Source of the DNA: Eubacteriales bacterium
GTDB lineage: Bacteria; Bacillota; Clostridia; Oscillospirales; CAG-272
Reading direction: 5' to 3'
Length of the DNA: 32,057 nt
Assembly (NCBI GenBank): GCA_045594865.1
Contig: JAZNZI010000135.1
Coordinates: 1 to 32,057 of the forward strand
In this document: in pieces, positions 851-6,351 of the stretch
How the letters are laid out: each line of letters starts with the position of its first letter
Numbering within the stretch: the stretch's first letter is position 1
Made by a program: the position numbers and the translations under genes
Notes under the pieces: model-generated
What the model was told of the DNA's origin: nothing
Seen by the model: only the letters and a program-made list of their open reading frames with translations
Database searches by the model: none

Positions 851-1819
851 ATGGGATTTATTTCAAGGCAGATAGAGGATAGATATAGAAAAGTCCTTTT
901 TTCCAGGCACGATCCCGACGATAGAATCTACTACTTTTCTCACAGAGATTTTGGGGGACTTCTCAGACGTGAGTACTCCTTTGAGAGCAGTAAGGGATAT
1001 ATGCTCCGCGGTCAGTTTTACTTCTATGCGAACCCAAGAACCGATAGAATAATCATTTTTGACCACGGACTTGCCCCTTGGCACAGATCCTATATGCGTG
1101 AGATAGAGATGCTCTGCCGTCAGGGATACGCCGTTTATGCCTACGATCATACGGGCTGTGGCGACTCGGAGGGAGAGCACGTTATGGGCCTTTGCGGCTC
1201 GCTATGCGATCTTGACGATTGCCTTTACGTTTTTCGCGGCTTGGAGGAGCTTTCGGATAAGGAGATCTACATTGTAGGTCATAGCTGGGGCGGATTTTCA
1301 ACGCTCAATATTCTCGCCTTTCATCCCGAGGTAAAAAAGATCGTTGCTATGTCGGGCTTTATTTCGCTTGAGGTAATGCAGAAGCAGGTGGCGCCATTTA
1401 TCTTAGCGCCCTTCAGAAAGCAGATATTCGAGCTTGAGCGGAAGTACAATCCCGAGTACGTTTACTGCTCGGCGATAGACGCTCTGTCAAAGTGCGATAC
1501 ACCCGCTCTTGTCATTCACTCTGCCGACGATATGACCGTTAGTGCAAGGGCGAATTTTATGCGCCTTCAGCGCGAACTTGCAGGCAGACCTAATACCGAG
1601 TTTCTTCTTCTAACAGACAGGAATCATAATCCTACCTTTACAAAAGCAGCGGTTGAGTATAAAAAGGAGTTCTTTAAGGCGCTTGCCAAGCATAAAAAGC
1701 AGGGAACTCTCACCACCGATGAGGAAAAGGCTAAATTCATCGCATCCTACGACTGGAATAAAATGACCGAGCAGGATATAGAGGTATGGGATAGAATATA
1801 CTCATTCCTTGACAGATAG
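851..1819 (+). CDS. Alpha/beta fold hydrolase (serine esterase/lipase-like)
   Basis: HG oxyanion region (FDHGL), YDHTGCGDSEG, nucleophile elbow GHSWGG, IHSADD acid and NHNP His. ATG at 851, just after the tgt stop, is preferred over the 827 start. Confidence 0.85.
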   Translation: MGFISRQIEDRYRKVLFSRHDPDDRIYYFSHRDFGGLLRREYSFESSKGYMLRGQFYFYANPRTDRIIIFDHGLAPWHRSYMREIEMLCRQGYAVYAYDHTGCGDSEGEHVMGLCGSLCDLDDCLYVFRGLEELSDKEIYIVGHSWGGFSTLNILAFHPEVKKIVAMSGFISLEVMQKQVAPFILAPFRKQIFELERKYNPEYVYCSAIDALSKCDTPALVIHSADDMTVSARANFMRLQRELAGRPNTEFLLLTDRNHNPTFTKAAVEYKKEFFKALAKHKKQGTLTTDEEKAKFIASYDWNKMTEQDIEVWDRIYSFLDR

Positions 1820-1853
1820 ATATTGTAAAAAAATGCTAAAATTTTATTAATCG

Positions 1854-1884
1854 TGTAACCTTTTGGTGCTTTTGTGTGTCTTAT
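1854..1884 (+). promoter_or_regulatory. Putative ECF sigma-factor promoter (sigma-V/X/W-like)
   Basis: TGTAAC (1854-1859) followed by CTTTT, a 17-nt spacer, then TGTC-TTAT (1877-1884). This resembles Bacillota ECF consensus TGwAAC-N16/17-CGTC. Confidence 0.55.
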
Positions 1885-1914
1885 GTTATAAATACGAATA
1901 ATATGGGGGAGAGT

Positions 1915-2973
1915 ATGAGAAATTTGTCTATTTATTCACCGAAAATTAAGTTGATTTTGCTCTCGCTTATGCATCTTGTGACCGATGGACTGTGCGCGTA
2001 TCTTGCTTTTGTAAAGTTATATCCGGATAATCCCGAAGGGAGCATATTTATTTTCTTTGGATATAACATTTTAGCGTTCGTAACCCAGTCTCCTGTAGGA
2101 ATGATGATTGATAAATATAATAAGCCTAAGCTGTTTCTCGCGGTGAGCATTATTTCTATGATTCTCGGCTATCTGCTCAGTGATTTGTGGTTTTTGTCGG
2201 TAATATTTATTGGTATAAGTAATTCTATATTTCACGTCGCAGGCGGAAAGTACGTTAGCGACAAGAGCGGGAATGATATCTCGCATCTCGGAATATTCGT
2301 TTCTACCGGAGCCATTGGGCTTGTGCTCGGGCAAAGATATCTATCCTTCCTGCCCCTGCCTTATTTGCTCTTTTCCGTGCTTATTATTTGCGGACTTCTT
2401 GTGATTTTTTTCGAGGACAGCGAAACTAAGTCCTATCCGGAGGAATACGAGTCGAATAAAGGCGAAACGTATGCTATACTTGCTATAATCGCTGTTGTTG
2501 TGATACGCTCTTTTGTTGGAAAGGTAGCCTCGCCCGTCTTTCCCCTTTCGGGAAACATGTTTTTAGTTATGGCGATTGCAACAGCTCTCGGCAAGGCGGC
2601 AGGAGGTATCTTTTCCAAATTCATCGGAATTAAAGCTACCACATATATCTCAATGCTTGCCTCTGCGATCTGTCTGACGCTTGGAACGGAAAGTATACCG
2701 ATATTTATCCTTGGAATATTCGCATTTAATTTTTCAATGCCCATAACATTGTATTATGCAAATATTCTTATGAAGGGAAGCGAGGGGTTTGCTTTCGGCA
2801 CACTTGCTGCAGCCTTGATACCCGGATTTTTTATCGCTATGTCATTTACATATTCAACCGTTATGCGAGTAATCACAGCGATACTTTGCCTTATATCGAT
2901 GCTTATAATAATCATTGTTTCAAAGAGAATAAAAAATGCTGATAAAAGCTTTAGTATTAACAGAAATAATTGA
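1915..2973 (+). CDS. MFS-like multi-pass membrane protein (resembles FSR-annotated MFS transporters)
   Basis: About 11-12 hydrophobic segments in two halves, with HLVTD in TM1 and loop motif GMMIDKYN after TM2. The start is uncertain (1876, 1903 or 1915); ATG 1915 follows GGGGGAGAG and lies downstream of the predicted promoter. Confidence 0.7.
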   Translation: MRNLSIYSPKIKLILLSLMHLVTDGLCAYLAFVKLYPDNPEGSIFIFFGYNILAFVTQSPVGMMIDKYNKPKLFLAVSIISMILGYLLSDLWFLSVIFIGISNSIFHVAGGKYVSDKSGNDISHLGIFVSTGAIGLVLGQRYLSFLPLPYLLFSVLIICGLLVIFFEDSETKSYPEEYESNKGETYAILAIIAVVVIRSFVGKVASPVFPLSGNMFLVMAIATALGKAAGGIFSKFIGIKATTYISMLASAICLTLGTESIPIFILGIFAFNFSMPITLYYANILMKGSEGFAFGTLAAALIPGFFIAMSFTYSTVMRVITAILCLISMLIIIIVSKRIKNADKSFSINRNN

Positions 2974-3265
2974 GTGTATAGCACTCTATTTCCTTAAAGA
3001 ACGAGATAAAATACTATATGTATATTGGGTGGCGTTGACTGCATTTACCAACCTGTGTGCCAATCTTTATATTGTTCTTGTCTTTTCGGGAAATAATTTT
3101 CAGTATTGGTTGACGGCTGCTGTAATTGAGATTTTAGTCTTTATAAGCGAATTTCTATTCTGTCTTGCCTATACCAAAGATAAACTAAAGAGCGTTAAAT
3201 ATAGCGCTGTATGCAATATTTCCAGCTTTATTATTGGACTCATTTTCTTGCCATTATTTATTTAA
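2936..3265 (+). CDS. Small four-TM hypothetical membrane protein with LTxxxE / TN / ExxVxxxE / NxxS motifs
   Basis: 109-aa hydrophobic ORF overlapping the end of the MFS gene, with charged or polar residues regularly placed inside its helices. Confidence 0.75.
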   Translation: MLIKALVLTEIIECIALYFLKERDKILYVYWVALTAFTNLCANLYIVLVFSGNNFQYWLTAAVIEILVFISEFLFCLAYTKDKLKSVKYSAVCNISSFIIGLIFLPLFI

Positions 3266-3277
3266 GGAGGATACACT

Positions 3278-3424
3278 ATGTTTTCGCTTGATGTCTTGCC
3301 GCCATCACCGTCAGAAATTCTTTTTTATAGATTATCCGAGGCTGAGTTTACAACGGTACTTTGTGTCATAGGCGTTGTAATTGTGCTTATTCTTGGTATA
3401 CTTCTTTTTAAAAAGAAGAGATAA
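3278..3424 (+). CDS. 48-aa single-TM micro-protein MFSLDVLPPSPSEILFYRLSEAEFTTVLCVIGVVIVLILGILLFKKKR
   Basis: Translated by hand. AAGGAGG (3264-3270) lies 7 nt before the ATG and overlaps the upstream stop. The C-terminal hydrophobic helix is followed by KKKR. Paralogous to the next ORF. Confidence 0.8.
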   Translation: MFSLDVLPPSPSEILFYRLSEAEFTTVLCVIGVVIVLILGILLFKKKR

Positions 3425-3438
3425 TTTAGGAGGATATT

Positions 3439-3561
3439 ATGTTTTTACTTGATGTTTTAGTTTCGCCACTTGCGTTGCTGCTTTATCCACCGATCGGTAT
3501 TACTGTAGGTATAATAATTGCGCTGATAATAATTGTCACTATTCTCATAAAAAGGCGTTGA
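3439..3561 (+). CDS. 40-aa single-TM micro-protein MFLLDVLVSPLALLLYPPIGITVGIIIALIIIVTILIKRR
   Basis: Translated by hand. AGGAGG (3428-3433) lies 5 nt before the ATG. Shares the MFxLDVL start and the TM plus basic tail with the preceding ORF. Confidence 0.8.
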   Translation: MFLLDVLVSPLALLLYPPIGITVGIIIALIIIVTILIKRR

Positions 3562-3590
3562 AAGCGCACGAAAAATCTTCTACATATGAA

Positions 3591-3616
3591 AAGGGAGAAC
3601 CAACCGGTTCTCCCTT
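3591..3616. terminator. Probable bidirectional intrinsic terminator
   Basis: Perfect 11-bp stem AAGGGAGAACC/GGTTCTCCCTT with a 4-nt loop, between convergent genes. Confidence 0.8.
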
Positions 3617-3624
3617 AGATTTTA

Positions 3625-4026
3625 TTAATCCAATTTAAGCTTATCCCCACTACAATGACCGTCAAACATACCTGTCATATCGCAGGTAAACTTGCCGTCG
3701 TTTTCTTTGAATCCTATCGCGAGAAGCAGTCTTTCATCCGCGGCATCGCTGGCTGCCTCGCAGATATGCGCGCCGCACAGATCAATAAAGTTCATCGTCT
3801 GTCTTGCAAGGATAAACATTGCCTCAAAGTCGCCTCTCTCACCCGCTTCCTTAAGGTCAAATATGTATCCCACCTTGCCGATCTCAAACTGCGACATACC
3901 CATGATCTCGCCGCTGTCTATATCAAACATAACGTAGGCGAAGGCGTCCGCGCGGTATTTCACGCCGCACTCCTTGCATATTTCCTTTTGCTTCTCCTTA
4001 TCCTGAACAGGTGTGATCTTAAACAT
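3625..4026 (-). CDS. Hypothetical protein (133 aa, possibly GNAT-like fold)
   Basis: Start overlaps the rluB end, with GGAAG/AGGA-type RBS bases upstream. The pattern ...LLLAIGFKE... is reminiscent of GNAT C-terminal motifs. Function not assignable. Confidence 0.65.
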   Translation of the reverse strand: MFKITPVQDKEKQKEICKECGVKYRADAFAYVMFDIDSGEIMGMSQFEIGKVGYIFDLKEAGERGDFEAMFILARQTMNFIDLCGAHICEAASDAADERLLLAIGFKENDGKFTCDMTGMFDGHCSGDKLKLD

Positions 4027-4756
4027 TTTTTACTTCCTTCGTAGCCTTATAAAGATAATCTACCTCACTCTGCTCAAGGTATCTCCACTTTCCTGTGGGA
4101 AGTCCGTCAAGCTTCAGATTACCGATAGATACGCGGGACAGACGCTTTACCGTAAGGTCAGCAGCCTCGCACATCTTTCTTATCTGTCTGTTTCTGCCCT
4201 CGAAGAGAGTGAATTTCAGCACGGTGCCATTCTCGTCCTCGCCGGTTATTATAACGTCGCAGGGCTTTATCTTATAGCCGTCGATCTCCAGGGGAGAGGT
4301 GAGTATATCAAGCTGACTCTCGGTAACCGAGCCGCCAACCTTAACGCGATATACCTTGGGTATGGAGTGGCTTGGGTGGGTAAGACGGTTTTTCAGCTCG
4401 CCGTCGTCGGTCAGCAGGATCATACCCTCGCTAATCATGTCAAGTCTGCCAACGGGATAAACCCTCGCATCCACACCCACAAGCAGATCGGTCACGCACT
4501 TCCTACCTCTGTCATCGGTGGTAGAGGAGAGATATCCTCTCGGCTTGTTTAGCATAATATAGGTGTACTTGCGCTTCTCGTATCTTACGCGCTTGCCCTT
4601 GTATGCTACTGCGTCCTCGGCGGGATTTATCTTCACTCCAATAGAAGCCACGTGACCGTTGACTGAGAAGTTTCCTCTTTCGATCTCCGCCTCTGCCGCT
4701 CTTCTGGACATAAGTCCCGCATCTGCTATAAATTTCTGAAGTCTGATCTTTTCCAT
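4019..4756 (-). CDS. rluB: RsuA/RluB-family rRNA pseudouridine synthase
   Basis: S4 domain (RLQKFIADAGLMSRRAAE), LNKPRG, catalytic VGRLD and EGRNRQIRKM. The start is placed at MEKIRL (4756). Confidence 0.9.
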   Translation of the reverse strand: MEKIRLQKFIADAGLMSRRAAEAEIERGNFSVNGHVASIGVKINPAEDAVAYKGKRVRYEKRKYTYIMLNKPRGYLSSTTDDRGRKCVTDLLVGVDARVYPVGRLDMISEGMILLTDDGELKNRLTHPSHSIPKVYRVKVGGSVTESQLDILTSPLEIDGYKIKPCDVIITGEDENGTVLKFTLFEGRNRQIRKMCEAADLTVKRLSRVSIGNLKLDGLPTGKWRYLEQSEVDYLYKATKEVKNV

Positions 4757-4778
4757 TATTTTCTCCGTTGTCCTGTTG

Positions 4779-5915
4779 TTAGTCAAATATAGATAGGATT
4801 CTTTCAAAAAATCCCTTGCTTTCCTTTTGGTTCACGCTTTCCAAGGCCACGAGAGGCACTCGTGCAACCTCTTCGCCGTCTGCGGTGTAAATGATCTCTC
4901 CAAGCTTTTCGCCTCTGCTAATGGGTGCAATTCCGTATTTAATAAGCCTTACGTGCTCGGTGATATATCGATCTCCCCGTTTTACGATTATATCGGCTCC
5001 GTCGGGATTTGCTACTGTAAGGTACTCGCTTTCGCCGTCAAGCAGGGGGATTTTATACATATGATCAAACCCGCGCGCCAGCGTGATTTTTTCAAGACTC
5101 TCAAAGCCATAGTCAAGCATTTTTTCGTGGTCGCTCCAATCGCTTGGCGCATCAAGAGTGACCGTGATAAAGGTAAGGCCGTCCTTTTCCGCTGCTCCGA
5201 CGAGGCATCTGCCGCTTTTCTTCGTGAAACCTGTCTTGATTCCTATGCATCCGTCGTAAAGGCGCAGCAGCTTGTTATGGTTAACGTAGGTGCGCGTTCT
5301 GTCCTCGGTGGCAAAGGTTTTCTTATAAGTAGAAGCAATTTTCCTGAAGGCGGGATTTTTCAGTGCCTCGGCAGCTATGAGCGAAAGCTCTCTTGCCGTG
5401 GTATAATGCTCATCATCGTCAAGTCCGTGGGGGTTAGTAAAATGCGTGTCGGTCAGACCAAGCCTGAAGGCTCTGTCGTTCATAAGGGCAGAGAAGCCCT
5501 CGATGTCACCGCCAATATGGCAGGCAATAGCCACCGCCGCGTCGTTTGCGCTTTGAAGCAGAAGCGCGTACAGAAGCTCCTCCATAGTAAGAACGTCGCC
5601 TAAGCGCAGATAGGCGGATGAGCCTTCGGTGCCTATAGCCGAATCGTCGATCTCAACAAGCTCGCTCGGGTCACTGTTTTCAAGAGCCACGAGAGCGGTC
5701 ATTATCTTGGTCGTACTCGCCATGGGCAGCCTTACGTCTGCGTTCTTTGAATAGAGGAAATTATCAATTTCAGGCTGATAAAGCACGGCAGACTTGGCAC
5801 TTACCGAAAACCCACCGCTTTTATGCTCACCGAAGGCATATATGGTGAGGAAGGAAAATATAAACGCCACTATCAGCAAAACGGCAATATATATACTTAT
5901 GCTGTTTCTTTTCAT
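4779..5915 (-). CDS. D-alanyl-D-alanine carboxypeptidase (peptidase S11, DacB/DacF-like)
   Basis: N-terminal signal/TM, MASTTK (SxxK), SAN (SxN), NPHGL, KTG and a PBP5 C-terminal domain. It lies in the scpAB...rluB context typical of sporulation DacB. Confidence 0.92.
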   Translation of the reverse strand: MKRNSISIYIAVLLIVAFIFSFLTIYAFGEHKSGGFSVSAKSAVLYQPEIDNFLYSKNADVRLPMASTTKIMTALVALENSDPSELVEIDDSAIGTEGSSAYLRLGDVLTMEELLYALLLQSANDAAVAIACHIGGDIEGFSALMNDRAFRLGLTDTHFTNPHGLDDDEHYTTARELSLIAAEALKNPAFRKIASTYKKTFATEDRTRTYVNHNKLLRLYDGCIGIKTGFTKKSGRCLVGAAEKDGLTFITVTLDAPSDWSDHEKMLDYGFESLEKITLARGFDHMYKIPLLDGESEYLTVANPDGADIIVKRGDRYITEHVRLIKYGIAPISRGEKLGEIIYTADGEEVARVPLVALESVNQKESKGFFERILSIFD

Positions 5916-5973
5916 TTTTAAGATCCTTTTTTTCTTATCCTTTGAAAGAAAGGATTTTTCTATTCAATGAAAT

Positions 5974-6351
5974 TTATGACAGCGCATTCTTTATTTTCTC
6001 AATTATCTCGGGAGACTTCTCGACAAGATTTACGATCTTGTCAATATCACCGACACCGCCGTTTATGTGTATAAGATTGACCTCGGCATCTCTGCCGACG
6101 GTTAAAAAGGCAATTGGTGTGATGGCAAGTCCCGTGCCACCGCCACCGCCGAAATTCTGATCGGTTTCCTGCCGACCTCCGCCGTAGTCGATGCCGCCGG
6201 TCGCAATTCCCATAGCCACCTTTGACACAGGGATAACCGTCACTCCGCTTGGCGTTGTTATGGCGTTTCCTATAACCGTTTCCATATCGGTAAAGCTTTT
6301 TATTCCGTCCATAGAAGCCTTTATAATGTCACTCATTTTATTCTCCGACAT
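5974..6351 (-). CDS. ytfJ: Sporulation protein YtfJ/GerW family
   Basis: Motifs TVIGNAI, VIPVSKV, FGGGGGTG and ITPIAFL. Confidence 0.9.
   Translation of the reverse strand: MSENKMSDIIKASMDGIKSFTDMETVIGNAITTPSGVTVIPVSKVAMGIATGGIDYGGGRQETDQNFGGGGGTGLAITPIAFLTVGRDAEVNLIHINGGVGDIDKIVNLVEKSPEIIEKIKNALS

Follow-up and report, generated by a model that had tools for sequence, protein, structure and literature searches.

The window considered here is a stretch of 32,057 nucleotides (nt) from a Eubacteriales bacterium (contig JAZNZI010000135.1, assembly GCA_045594865.1), and the element in question is a compact unit of four genes within its first four thousand nucleotides. The unit encodes a divergent membrane protein with the fold of the major facilitator superfamily (MFS), a small four-helix membrane protein of 109 amino acids (aa), and two single-pass micro-proteins that share a short N-terminal motif. 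These three kinds of component are linked in homologous loci, and we tentatively interpret them as parts of one membrane complex. The list of open reading frames (ORFs) and the sequence agree on four tightly packed ORFs on the same (+) strand, at the expected place in the window:

1863-1892, + strand: candidate promoter, weak and uncertain (TTGGTG, 18 nt, TG-n-TATAAA), picked out by eye and absent from the scan list
1915-2973, + strand: gene of the MFS-fold protein, 352 aa
2936-3265, + strand: gene of the four-helix protein, 109 aa, overlapping the MFS ORF by 38 nt
3278-3424, + strand: gene of micro-protein 1, 48 aa, with a GGAGG box (AAGGAGGA upstream), 12 nt after the preceding stop
3439-3561, + strand: gene of micro-protein 2, 40 aa, with a GGAGG box (AGGAGGA upstream), 14 nt after the preceding stop
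3591-3616, + strand: intrinsic terminator hairpin with a T-rich tail (by scan, a stem of 11 base pairs, 6 of them G-C, and a 4-nt loop)

The initial annotation, made from the letters of this DNA, had described four coupled same-strand ORFs forming one unit. The ORFs, their overlap and the 12- and 14-nt gaps bear this out, and the 38-nt overlap between the MFS and four-helix genes fits coupled translation. The terminator it had proposed was recovered by the scan, with the 11-bp stem and T-rich tail listed above. Its promoter at 1854-1884 was not recovered: a consensus scan gave 7 sigma-70-like sites in the region against 7.2 expected from shuffled sequence, and none on the + strand at that place. 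The MFS ORF most likely starts at the ATG at 1915, with GGGGGAGAG just 5' of it, and not at the GTG at 1876, because relatives likewise start with MR. The unit had also been called AT-richer than its flanks, in agreement with a G+C content of 0.33-0.45 over 1800-3600 as against 0.46-0.52 on either side. Two public RNA runs contain parts of the stretch. One, labelled transcriptomic but probably DNA, has contigs over 2890-3160, 3242-3395 and 3418-3570; the other, a metatranscriptome, has one 262-nt contig (1719-1980) that runs from the end of the upstream hydrolase ORF (see below) through the intergenic DNA into the MFS start, with 4 differences. These contigs are too thin to serve as proof of transcription, co-transcription or read-through.

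The largest product, the MFS-fold protein, is divergent and has about 12 transmembrane helices in its 352 residues. Its match to Pfam MFS_1 (PF07690) is marginal, 33.7 bits against a cut-off of 33.4, and spans only residues 45-180 in the N-terminal half. The AlphaFold model (pLDDT 92.3, pTM 0.90) is a twelve-helix fold made of two six-helix bundles. With this model Foldseek returned 260 PDB matches at E<=0.001; those listed are all MFS transporters, with top TM scores of 0.6-0.7, and include VMAT1/2, OxlT, FucP and NorA besides the two best, 6zgr and 6g9x, both bacterial and both titled 'MFS transporter'. The marginal Pfam score and the confident fold therefore indicate that the protein genuinely has the MFS fold but is very divergent. 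A profile built from 35 sequences found no solved chain by sequence at E<=0.01, and the protein has no NCBIfam family at E<=1 and nothing in PADLOC or PHROGs. Motif A of the superfamily, G-x3-D-[RK]-x-G-[RK]-[RK], lies between helices 2 and 3. The corresponding region reads G62-MMI-D66-K-YNKPK, in which G62 and D66 are invariant across the 35 aligned sequences and the remainder deviates from the motif; the invariant polar residues of that alignment include H20, N51, Q58, D66, N103, H107, R198 and K227. The protein has more than 560 relatives, and the names seen among them are 'hypothetical protein' or an automatic label, 'FSR family fosmidomycin resistance protein-like MFS transporter', which stands on 6 of the 120 relatives listed. 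Membership in the Fsr (fosmidomycin resistance) family was considered and is unsupported by curated models, NCBIfam giving 0 families at E<=1. A plasmid collection searched with the MFS protein and with a four-helix relative gave no match.

The 109-aa protein is modelled by AlphaFold as a four-helix bundle (pLDDT 94.5) with helices at residues 2-19, 25-48, 54-80 and 83-108. In an alignment of 35 sequences, mostly 17-30% identical to the window protein, T9, E13, E65, E72, N94, S97 and G101 are invariant and T38 is nearly so; according to the model, these conserved Thr, Glu, Asn, Ser and Gly residues make up a buried polar core. The basic loops KERDK and KDKLKSVK would, by the positive-inside rule, leave the N- and C-termini both outside. 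The protein matches no family in Pfam, NCBIfam, PADLOC or PHROGs, 23 of its relatives have no Pfam match at E<=1 or E<=0.1, and 15 scanned representatives have no Pfam domain over the four-helix region. Compared with known folds, the model finds only generic helical bundles among the matches listed (Z 9.0; Foldseek E>=1.1), and a search of solved structures with the sequence profile found nothing. A match to the CDP-DAG synthetase fold (TM 0.62, probability 0.5) was set aside as uninformative. The ESM Atlas places the 109-aa protein and a fusion relative in clusters of 'hypothetical protein' only. A profile search of 1.84 billion representatives yielded 7,996 four-helix proteins at E<=0.001, and 3,422 at E<=1e-10, where each representative stands for a cluster at 50% identity. 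The distribution is patchy: the domain is carried by 49 of 401 genomes sampled in the order and by 23 of 401 sampled in the phylum. Among individual relatives, the four-helix domain is tandemly duplicated in P0130 and interrupted in P0162 by a Gly/Met/Ile-rich repeat in its second outer loop, and P0269 has a partial response-regulator receiver domain in front of it; this last protein may be a chimeric or truncated call.

The two micro-proteins begin MFSLDVLPPSP (micro-protein 1) and MFLLDVLVSP (micro-protein 2), and each continues into one hydrophobic span followed by a basic tail, KKKR in the first and KRR in the second. Neither has a family above threshold in Pfam, NCBIfam, PADLOC or PHROGs; their exact sequences occur without names in public protein sets, on 27 contigs for micro-protein 1 and 32 for micro-protein 2. 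With an MFS fold, a four-helix bundle and two single-span micro-proteins with basic tails, the earlier statement that all four products are membrane proteins is correct. The D-V..P motif that had been noticed is also real and conserved, as an alignment of 31 micro-proteins shows: D5 never varies and P11 hardly does. In relatives of the locus, the third component has in common an N-terminal motif and a hydrophobic helix with a basic cluster, and little else. The motif, hydrophobic-[A/L]-D-[V/I]-[I/V]-x(0-3)-P, comes in two forms. The leaderless form is found in micro-proteins of 37-60 aa (e.g., MFLLDVLSP.., MIVDVVPGP.., MSLIPILADVIFSP...), and the signal-peptide form in proteins of 61-514 aa, where the motif follows the signal peptide (e.g., ..VYA|DVIWEPxD.., ..ADA|DALSPGEWF...) and precedes ectodomains that vary, some of them weakly SH3-like. 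The initial annotation had taken micro-proteins to be the third component. That holds in the window; in relatives the third component also includes signal-peptide proteins of up to 514 aa.

Linkage of the MFS and four-helix genes was followed by scanning the genomes of 185,579 species with the MFS alignment, which found 328 relatives, from which 80 loci were kept. Their MFS proteins are 28-98% identical to that of the window. A four-helix gene lies beside the MFS gene on the same strand in all 80 loci, downstream of it in 75 (65 of those within about 100 nt) and upstream in 5. This co-occurrence upholds the earlier proposal that the genes are one conserved functional unit. In the sample of 401 genomes from the order, the four-helix profile matches 49 genomes and the MFS profile 34. 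A strong MFS match occurs in 27 genomes. In 25 of these the two genes are same-strand neighbours, and in the two without a visible pair the MFS genes are at contig ends; the seven weaker MFS matches are without a four-helix partner. Seen from the other side, stand-alone four-helix genes have an MFS neighbour in 21 of 21 loci. Across 20 module loci, examined up to 8 kb to each side, no further neighbour is conserved, and the unit is therefore self-contained.

Whether a motif protein accompanies the pair was counted with one fixed pattern in the 80 loci, over 2.5 kb downstream, with the upstream side and the whole opposite strand as controls. A motif-bearing membrane protein is encoded on the same strand within 2.5 kb downstream in 69 of the 80 loci (92 genes in 175 kb), or in 65 of the 71 loci whose downstream sequence extends to 1 kb or more. 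The motif proteins number 1-4 copies per locus. The controls gave 6 of 80 loci upstream, of which at least 3 are apparently genuine members placed upstream, and 4 of 80 on the opposite strand, in 550 kb. As to the 11 loci without a downstream match, 4 have less than 400 nt there, in 1 a motif protein is cut by the contig end, 2 have the gene upstream, 1 has variant candidates, and in 3 nothing is visible. The initial annotation had staked its proposal on homologues of the two larger genes co-occurring and having motif-bearing ORFs beside them, which is the case in 80/80 and 69/80 loci, respectively. Features that the pattern does not demand are shared as well. Of the 37 leaderless proteins, 36 have a proline at +4 to +8 counted from the Asp, as do 44 of the 55 signal-type proteins, Pro being 5% overall; a helix followed directly by at least two Lys or Arg residues is present in 37 of 37 and 54 of 55, respectively. 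Signal-type proteins have Val or Ala at -3 in 49 of 55 cases and Ala at -1 in 52 of 55, as expected for ordinary signal-peptidase sites; the mature protein should accordingly start with the Asp. Leaderless forms have 2-10 hydrophobic residues before the Asp, with Leu or Ala at -1. Outside the module, an A-D-hydrophobic junction was found in 2 of 106 ORFs with a signal-peptide-like start, one of the two being a module member just upstream. In the window's own genome (78% complete), the two micro-protein genes of this operon are the sole leaderless motif ORFs, and the signal-type pattern gives 9 matches against 5 in a reversed-sequence control.

Several loci show expansions or variants of the motif proteins. 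Four micro-protein genes stand in a row in one (L115, 4840-5659), and paralogous ectodomain proteins of about 264-356 aa stand in tandem in two others, four in L083 (3813-7421) and three in L067 (8474-11232). In L116, L119, L121, L129, L134, L145 and L152 the motif proteins read ..ADADAL.PGEWF.. or ..AYADAMPAEDAW.. and end in a Cys-rich CPQCG..FCKKCG tail, zinc-ribbon-like in appearance, which would be a cytoplasmic domain on the partner.

The carriers, by their titles, are mostly bins of Clostridia, Oscillospiraceae, Ruminococcus and Acutalibacteraceae from animal guts, and the cultured ones include Flintibacter muris DSM 110149, [Clostridium] polysaccharolyticum DSM 1801 and Methanosarcina sp. 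KYL-1. The five loci with the four-helix gene upstream (L110, L112, L114, L123 and L126) are titled Methanosarcina, Methanosarcinaceae and Methanobacteriota, plus one Bacteroidales bin. Their order is four-helix gene, MFS gene and then, in 4 of the 5, a signal-type motif protein of 72-84 aa (..VVRADVVSPGATA..). With these Methanosarcina-type loci, the module spans the boundary between bacteria and archaea.

The four-helix domain and the motif also occur joined in one polypeptide. Architectures were read among the best 150 of the 7,996 four-helix representatives. In P0205 (365 aa) the four-helix domain is followed directly by ..QTAAADLIWTPSDDFY.. (A-A-D-L-I-W-T-P), an ectodomain, a helix and RRFWKKEK; in P0143 (159 aa) it is followed by ..VIALADVISYE.., a helix and RNRKK. 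Fusions in the reverse order are more widespread: proteins of about 250-430 aa that have a signal peptide, A|D-x-G-P-K, an ectodomain of about 150-200 aa and a C-terminal four-helix domain. The mature start is A|D-x-G-P-K in 36 of the 39 reverse-order fusions read, many of these 36 being near-identical; it is A|N-S-A-E-P-P in 2, and 1 was unparsed. Around the ectodomain-fused four-helix genes, none of 8 loci has an MFS gene within 1.5 kb, and a comparison of 11 loci showed no conserved neighbour of any kind. The fusions, taken with the MFS pairing of stand-alone genes, therefore make the four-helix domain with the N-terminal Asp-Pro motif the constant pair, to which the MFS protein is added wherever its two members are encoded as separate chains. 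Together with the motif linkage in 69/80 loci, these natural fusions support the earlier claim that the micro-proteins belong with the 109-aa protein.

The unit has the following neighbours in the window:

1-849: TGT gene, upstream flank of the unit
827-1819: alpha/beta hydrolase ORF (Abhydrolase_1, Hydrolase_4), overlapping the end of the TGT gene by 23 nt
3625-4026, - strand: unnamed 133-aa ORF, convergent, ending 9 nt past the operon hairpin
4019-6351, - strand: pseudouridine synthase with an S4 domain, S11 D-Ala-D-Ala carboxypeptidase and sporulation protein YtfJ, in a row

The TGT gene and the S4-domain pseudouridine synthase agree with the tgt- and rluB-type flanks that had been named for the unit. 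The alpha/beta hydrolase is present in 2 of 5 same-genus genomes, and its homologue in a same-genus genome has a different context. The convergent 133-aa ORF has no Pfam or NCBIfam family. The hairpin at 3591-3616 sits between it and the operon and, from this position, may terminate transcription in both directions. The row of S4-domain pseudouridine synthase, S11 carboxypeptidase and YtfJ suggests a spore-forming host.

How might the three components work together? The reading we prefer, while giving it somewhat less than an even chance, is that the module is a three-component complex of the cytoplasmic membrane in which the four-helix subunit couples single-pass partners to an MFS transporter. 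The divergent MFS-fold protein would be the carrier for a small solute, and the 109-aa protein its obligatory small subunit, or adaptor, with both termini outside and the three invariant glutamates, together with Asn, Ser and Thr, near mid-bilayer. As third component there would be at least one single-pass protein whose N-terminus faces outward and whose basic tail faces inward, and the exposed N-terminal Asp motif may dock on the outer face of the four-helix subunit. The two bare micro-proteins of the window would then be regulatory or structural subunits, and the partners in relatives would be exchangeable and bear ectodomains, e.g., SH3-like ones. It is from the linkage, folds, motif and fusions observed that we infer physical binding, the topology and any transport. 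Subunits are preferred over an enzyme with its substrates because of the fusions in two orders, the coding overlap, the strict encoding in one locus, and the self-contained fused form.

Several points weigh against this interpretation. The step from linkage to binding of the components is indirect. Because the partners' transmembrane helices show no sequence conservation, the short motif would have to account for any contact. A single docking mode does not obviously suit both an Asp preceded by hydrophobic residues and an Asp exposed by signal peptidase. A catalytic role would suit the invariant Glu, Ser and Asn of the four-helix protein just as well. In addition, the counts suggest more independence than there is, because the motif pattern was composed after examples had been seen and many of the loci are related. 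A prediction of the complex of MFS protein, four-helix protein and micro-protein 1, made with a separate alignment for each and without controls, scored 0.23 against a mark of 0.32 and counts neither way.

The catalytic possibility can be developed into a different account of the module, N-terminal processing or sorting, which we regard as doubtful but deserving of attention. Here the four-helix protein would be a small intramembrane enzyme that cleaves or modifies (e.g., acylates) the motif proteins at [A/L]|D, the motif proteins would be its substrates, and the MFS protein would provide a co-substrate or remove a product. Motif proteins of 37-514 aa with unrelated ectodomains, in 1-4 copies per locus, form the substrate pattern of dedicated sorting enzymes. 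In leaderless forms the residues before the Asp are constrained, hydrophobic with Leu or Ala at -1, in the manner of a cleavage site, and E13, E65, E72, N94, S97 and T9 are strictly invariant across the 35 sequences in spite of identities of mostly 17-30%. The searches made, however, found no likeness to a known peptidase or transferase family or fold, and nothing marks the 109-aa protein as the enzyme that the initial annotation had seen in this layout. Its polar core lies mid-membrane whereas the motif is extracytoplasmic; signal-type proteins already have a standard signal-peptidase site; the ectodomain-to-four-helix fusions would have to be self-acting, single-turnover enzymes; and no motif proteins are scattered elsewhere in the window genome, where the signal-type matches number 9 against 5 in the reversed control. 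A broader form of the same idea, to which we likewise give only limited credence, is that the four-helix domain and the Asp-Pro motif are an envelope protein-recognition system, in which the N-termini of single-pass proteins would be read, and perhaps also cut or modified, by a minimal enzyme or receptor within the membrane. The invariant residues invite yet another suggestion, namely an ion-coupled device whose buried carboxylates bind or conduct a cation or protons, with the Asp of the partner completing or gating the site and the MFS protein using or regulating the flux. In its favor are three glutamates, invariant and embedded in the membrane, in the company of Asn, Ser and Thr; the invariant Asp on the partner; and the tandem duplication in P0130, which suggests that the domain works as a dimer. 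We think it unlikely: its basis is purely residue chemistry, none of the fold matches listed is a known channel or carrier, and it is compatible with the complex or with processing, overlapping the favored complex rather than excluding it.

Two further accounts were weighed. Two adjoining hydrophobic peptides of 40-48 aa near a four-helix membrane protein and a transporter could be a peptide toxin or bacteriocin locus, with membrane-active micro-proteins, the 109-aa protein as immunity protein and the MFS protein as exporter; the patchy distribution (49/401 and 23/401 genomes) and the G+C content below that of the flanks would agree with this. This reading fails because the motif is also found on large anchored proteins: homologous loci carry it on signal-peptide proteins of 190-514 aa with ectodomains and membrane anchors, not on secreted peptides. 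Moreover, a fully hydrophobic 20-residue span with a KKKR tail is an anchor and not an amphipathic helix, there is no match in PADLOC, PHROGs or the Pfam bacteriocin and immunity models, and the plasmid collection held no copies; we consider a toxin locus very improbable. Chance juxtaposition of an ordinary MFS efflux gene with unrelated or spurious small ORFs is hardly credible. Short hydrophobic ORFs do arise easily at random, Pfam MFS_1 is only at threshold, and one source names relatives automatically as FSR-type MFS transporters. Against it stand the co-occurrence in 80/80 and 69/80 loci with strand and position controls, the conservation of frames and motif across loci whose MFS proteins are 28-98% identical, the natural fusions, and strong ribosome-binding sites.

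Carriers of the MFS with single-pass ancillary subunits exist, the monocarboxylate transporters with basigin or embigin being an example. The module is similar in that an MFS-fold carrier is joined with type I single-pass proteins of variable ectodomain. It differs in that it always has a four-helix subunit, and its partner conserves an outer N-terminal Asp motif and not the helix; binding within the module is a proposal. TRAP and TTT transporters consist of a large 12-helix subunit, a small 4-helix subunit (DctQ or TctB) and an extracytoplasmic binding protein. The module has the same three-part layout of large carrier, small four-helix subunit and extracytoplasmic partner, but its carrier has the MFS fold, its third part may be a 40-aa peptide without a binding domain, and no Pfam or NCBIfam match relates its four-helix protein to DctQ or TctB. 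AcrZ, which acts with AcrB, is a small-protein regulator of a transporter. The micro-proteins resemble it in being 40-60 aa long with one transmembrane helix and in being encoded with, or acting on, a transporter; unlike AcrZ, they are members of a family whose defining feature, an outer N-terminal motif, recurs on large proteins, and they have a separate four-helix partner. The 109-aa protein has no Pfam match at E<=1 to the small multidrug resistance family of EmrE (PF00893), and EmrE-like chains are absent from the Foldseek and VIA matches listed for its model.

Sorting systems (sortase/LPXTG, exosortase/PEP-CTERM, rhombosortase/GlyGly-CTERM) also act on diverse proteins with a short motif, a helix and a basic cluster, and the motif proteins of the module are likewise encoded beside a polytopic membrane protein with invariant polar residues. 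The analogy to these signals drawn in the initial annotation fails on position, since the conserved motif sits at the N-terminus and is distant from the C-terminal helix in the larger proteins, which reach 514 aa. Neither micro-protein contains LPXTG; the models TIGR01167 (14.7 against a cut-off of 15.9) and PF00746 (12.6 against 20) stay below threshold and see helix and tail only. No sortase or exosortase homologue was found, the neighbours having no family match to one in Pfam or NCBIfam, and the four-helix protein is without a Cys/His/Arg or Ser/His set. Membrane peptidases (signal peptidase II, prepilin peptidase, CPBP/Rce1, rhomboid) have no Pfam match to four-helix proteins either. The invariant set of T, E, E, E, N, S and G, with no Asp pair, His or Cys, is unlike theirs; the missing residues do not exclude a new catalytic type. 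Models of anti-phage defence (PADLOC) and of phage proteins (PHROGs) gave matches at chance level only (E>=0.012). Full-text literature searches found nothing relevant on the module, but text at the level of the motif cannot be searched, so a printed description is possible. That the locus fits no named pathway, as stated at the outset of its study, is in keeping with four libraries that give the four-helix protein and the micro-proteins nothing and the large protein MFS_1 at its cut-off. The module meets the defining features of none of the systems compared, and we rate it as outside the known kinds, with the caveat that it is, read most conservatively, a variant form of MFS transporter that has accessory subunits.

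Two of the three components are thus without a family, a name or a solved relative, even though the small domain is abundant, with 7,996 clusters. The linkage rules are strict enough for partners to be predicted from sequence alone. If the parts bind, the module would be a new way to build a prokaryotic transporter, with a dedicated adaptor and exchangeable single-pass partners, and it would provide a function for micro-proteins of 37-60 aa that are left unnamed in the sources examined. If the small protein is instead an enzyme, it would represent a new class of envelope protein processing; a recognition system of that kind, should it prove true, would be the N-terminal counterpart of sortase and exosortase, with some 8,000 clusters in Bacillota and with members also in Methanosarcina. 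The cultured carriers allow the hypothesis to be tested directly under either reading.

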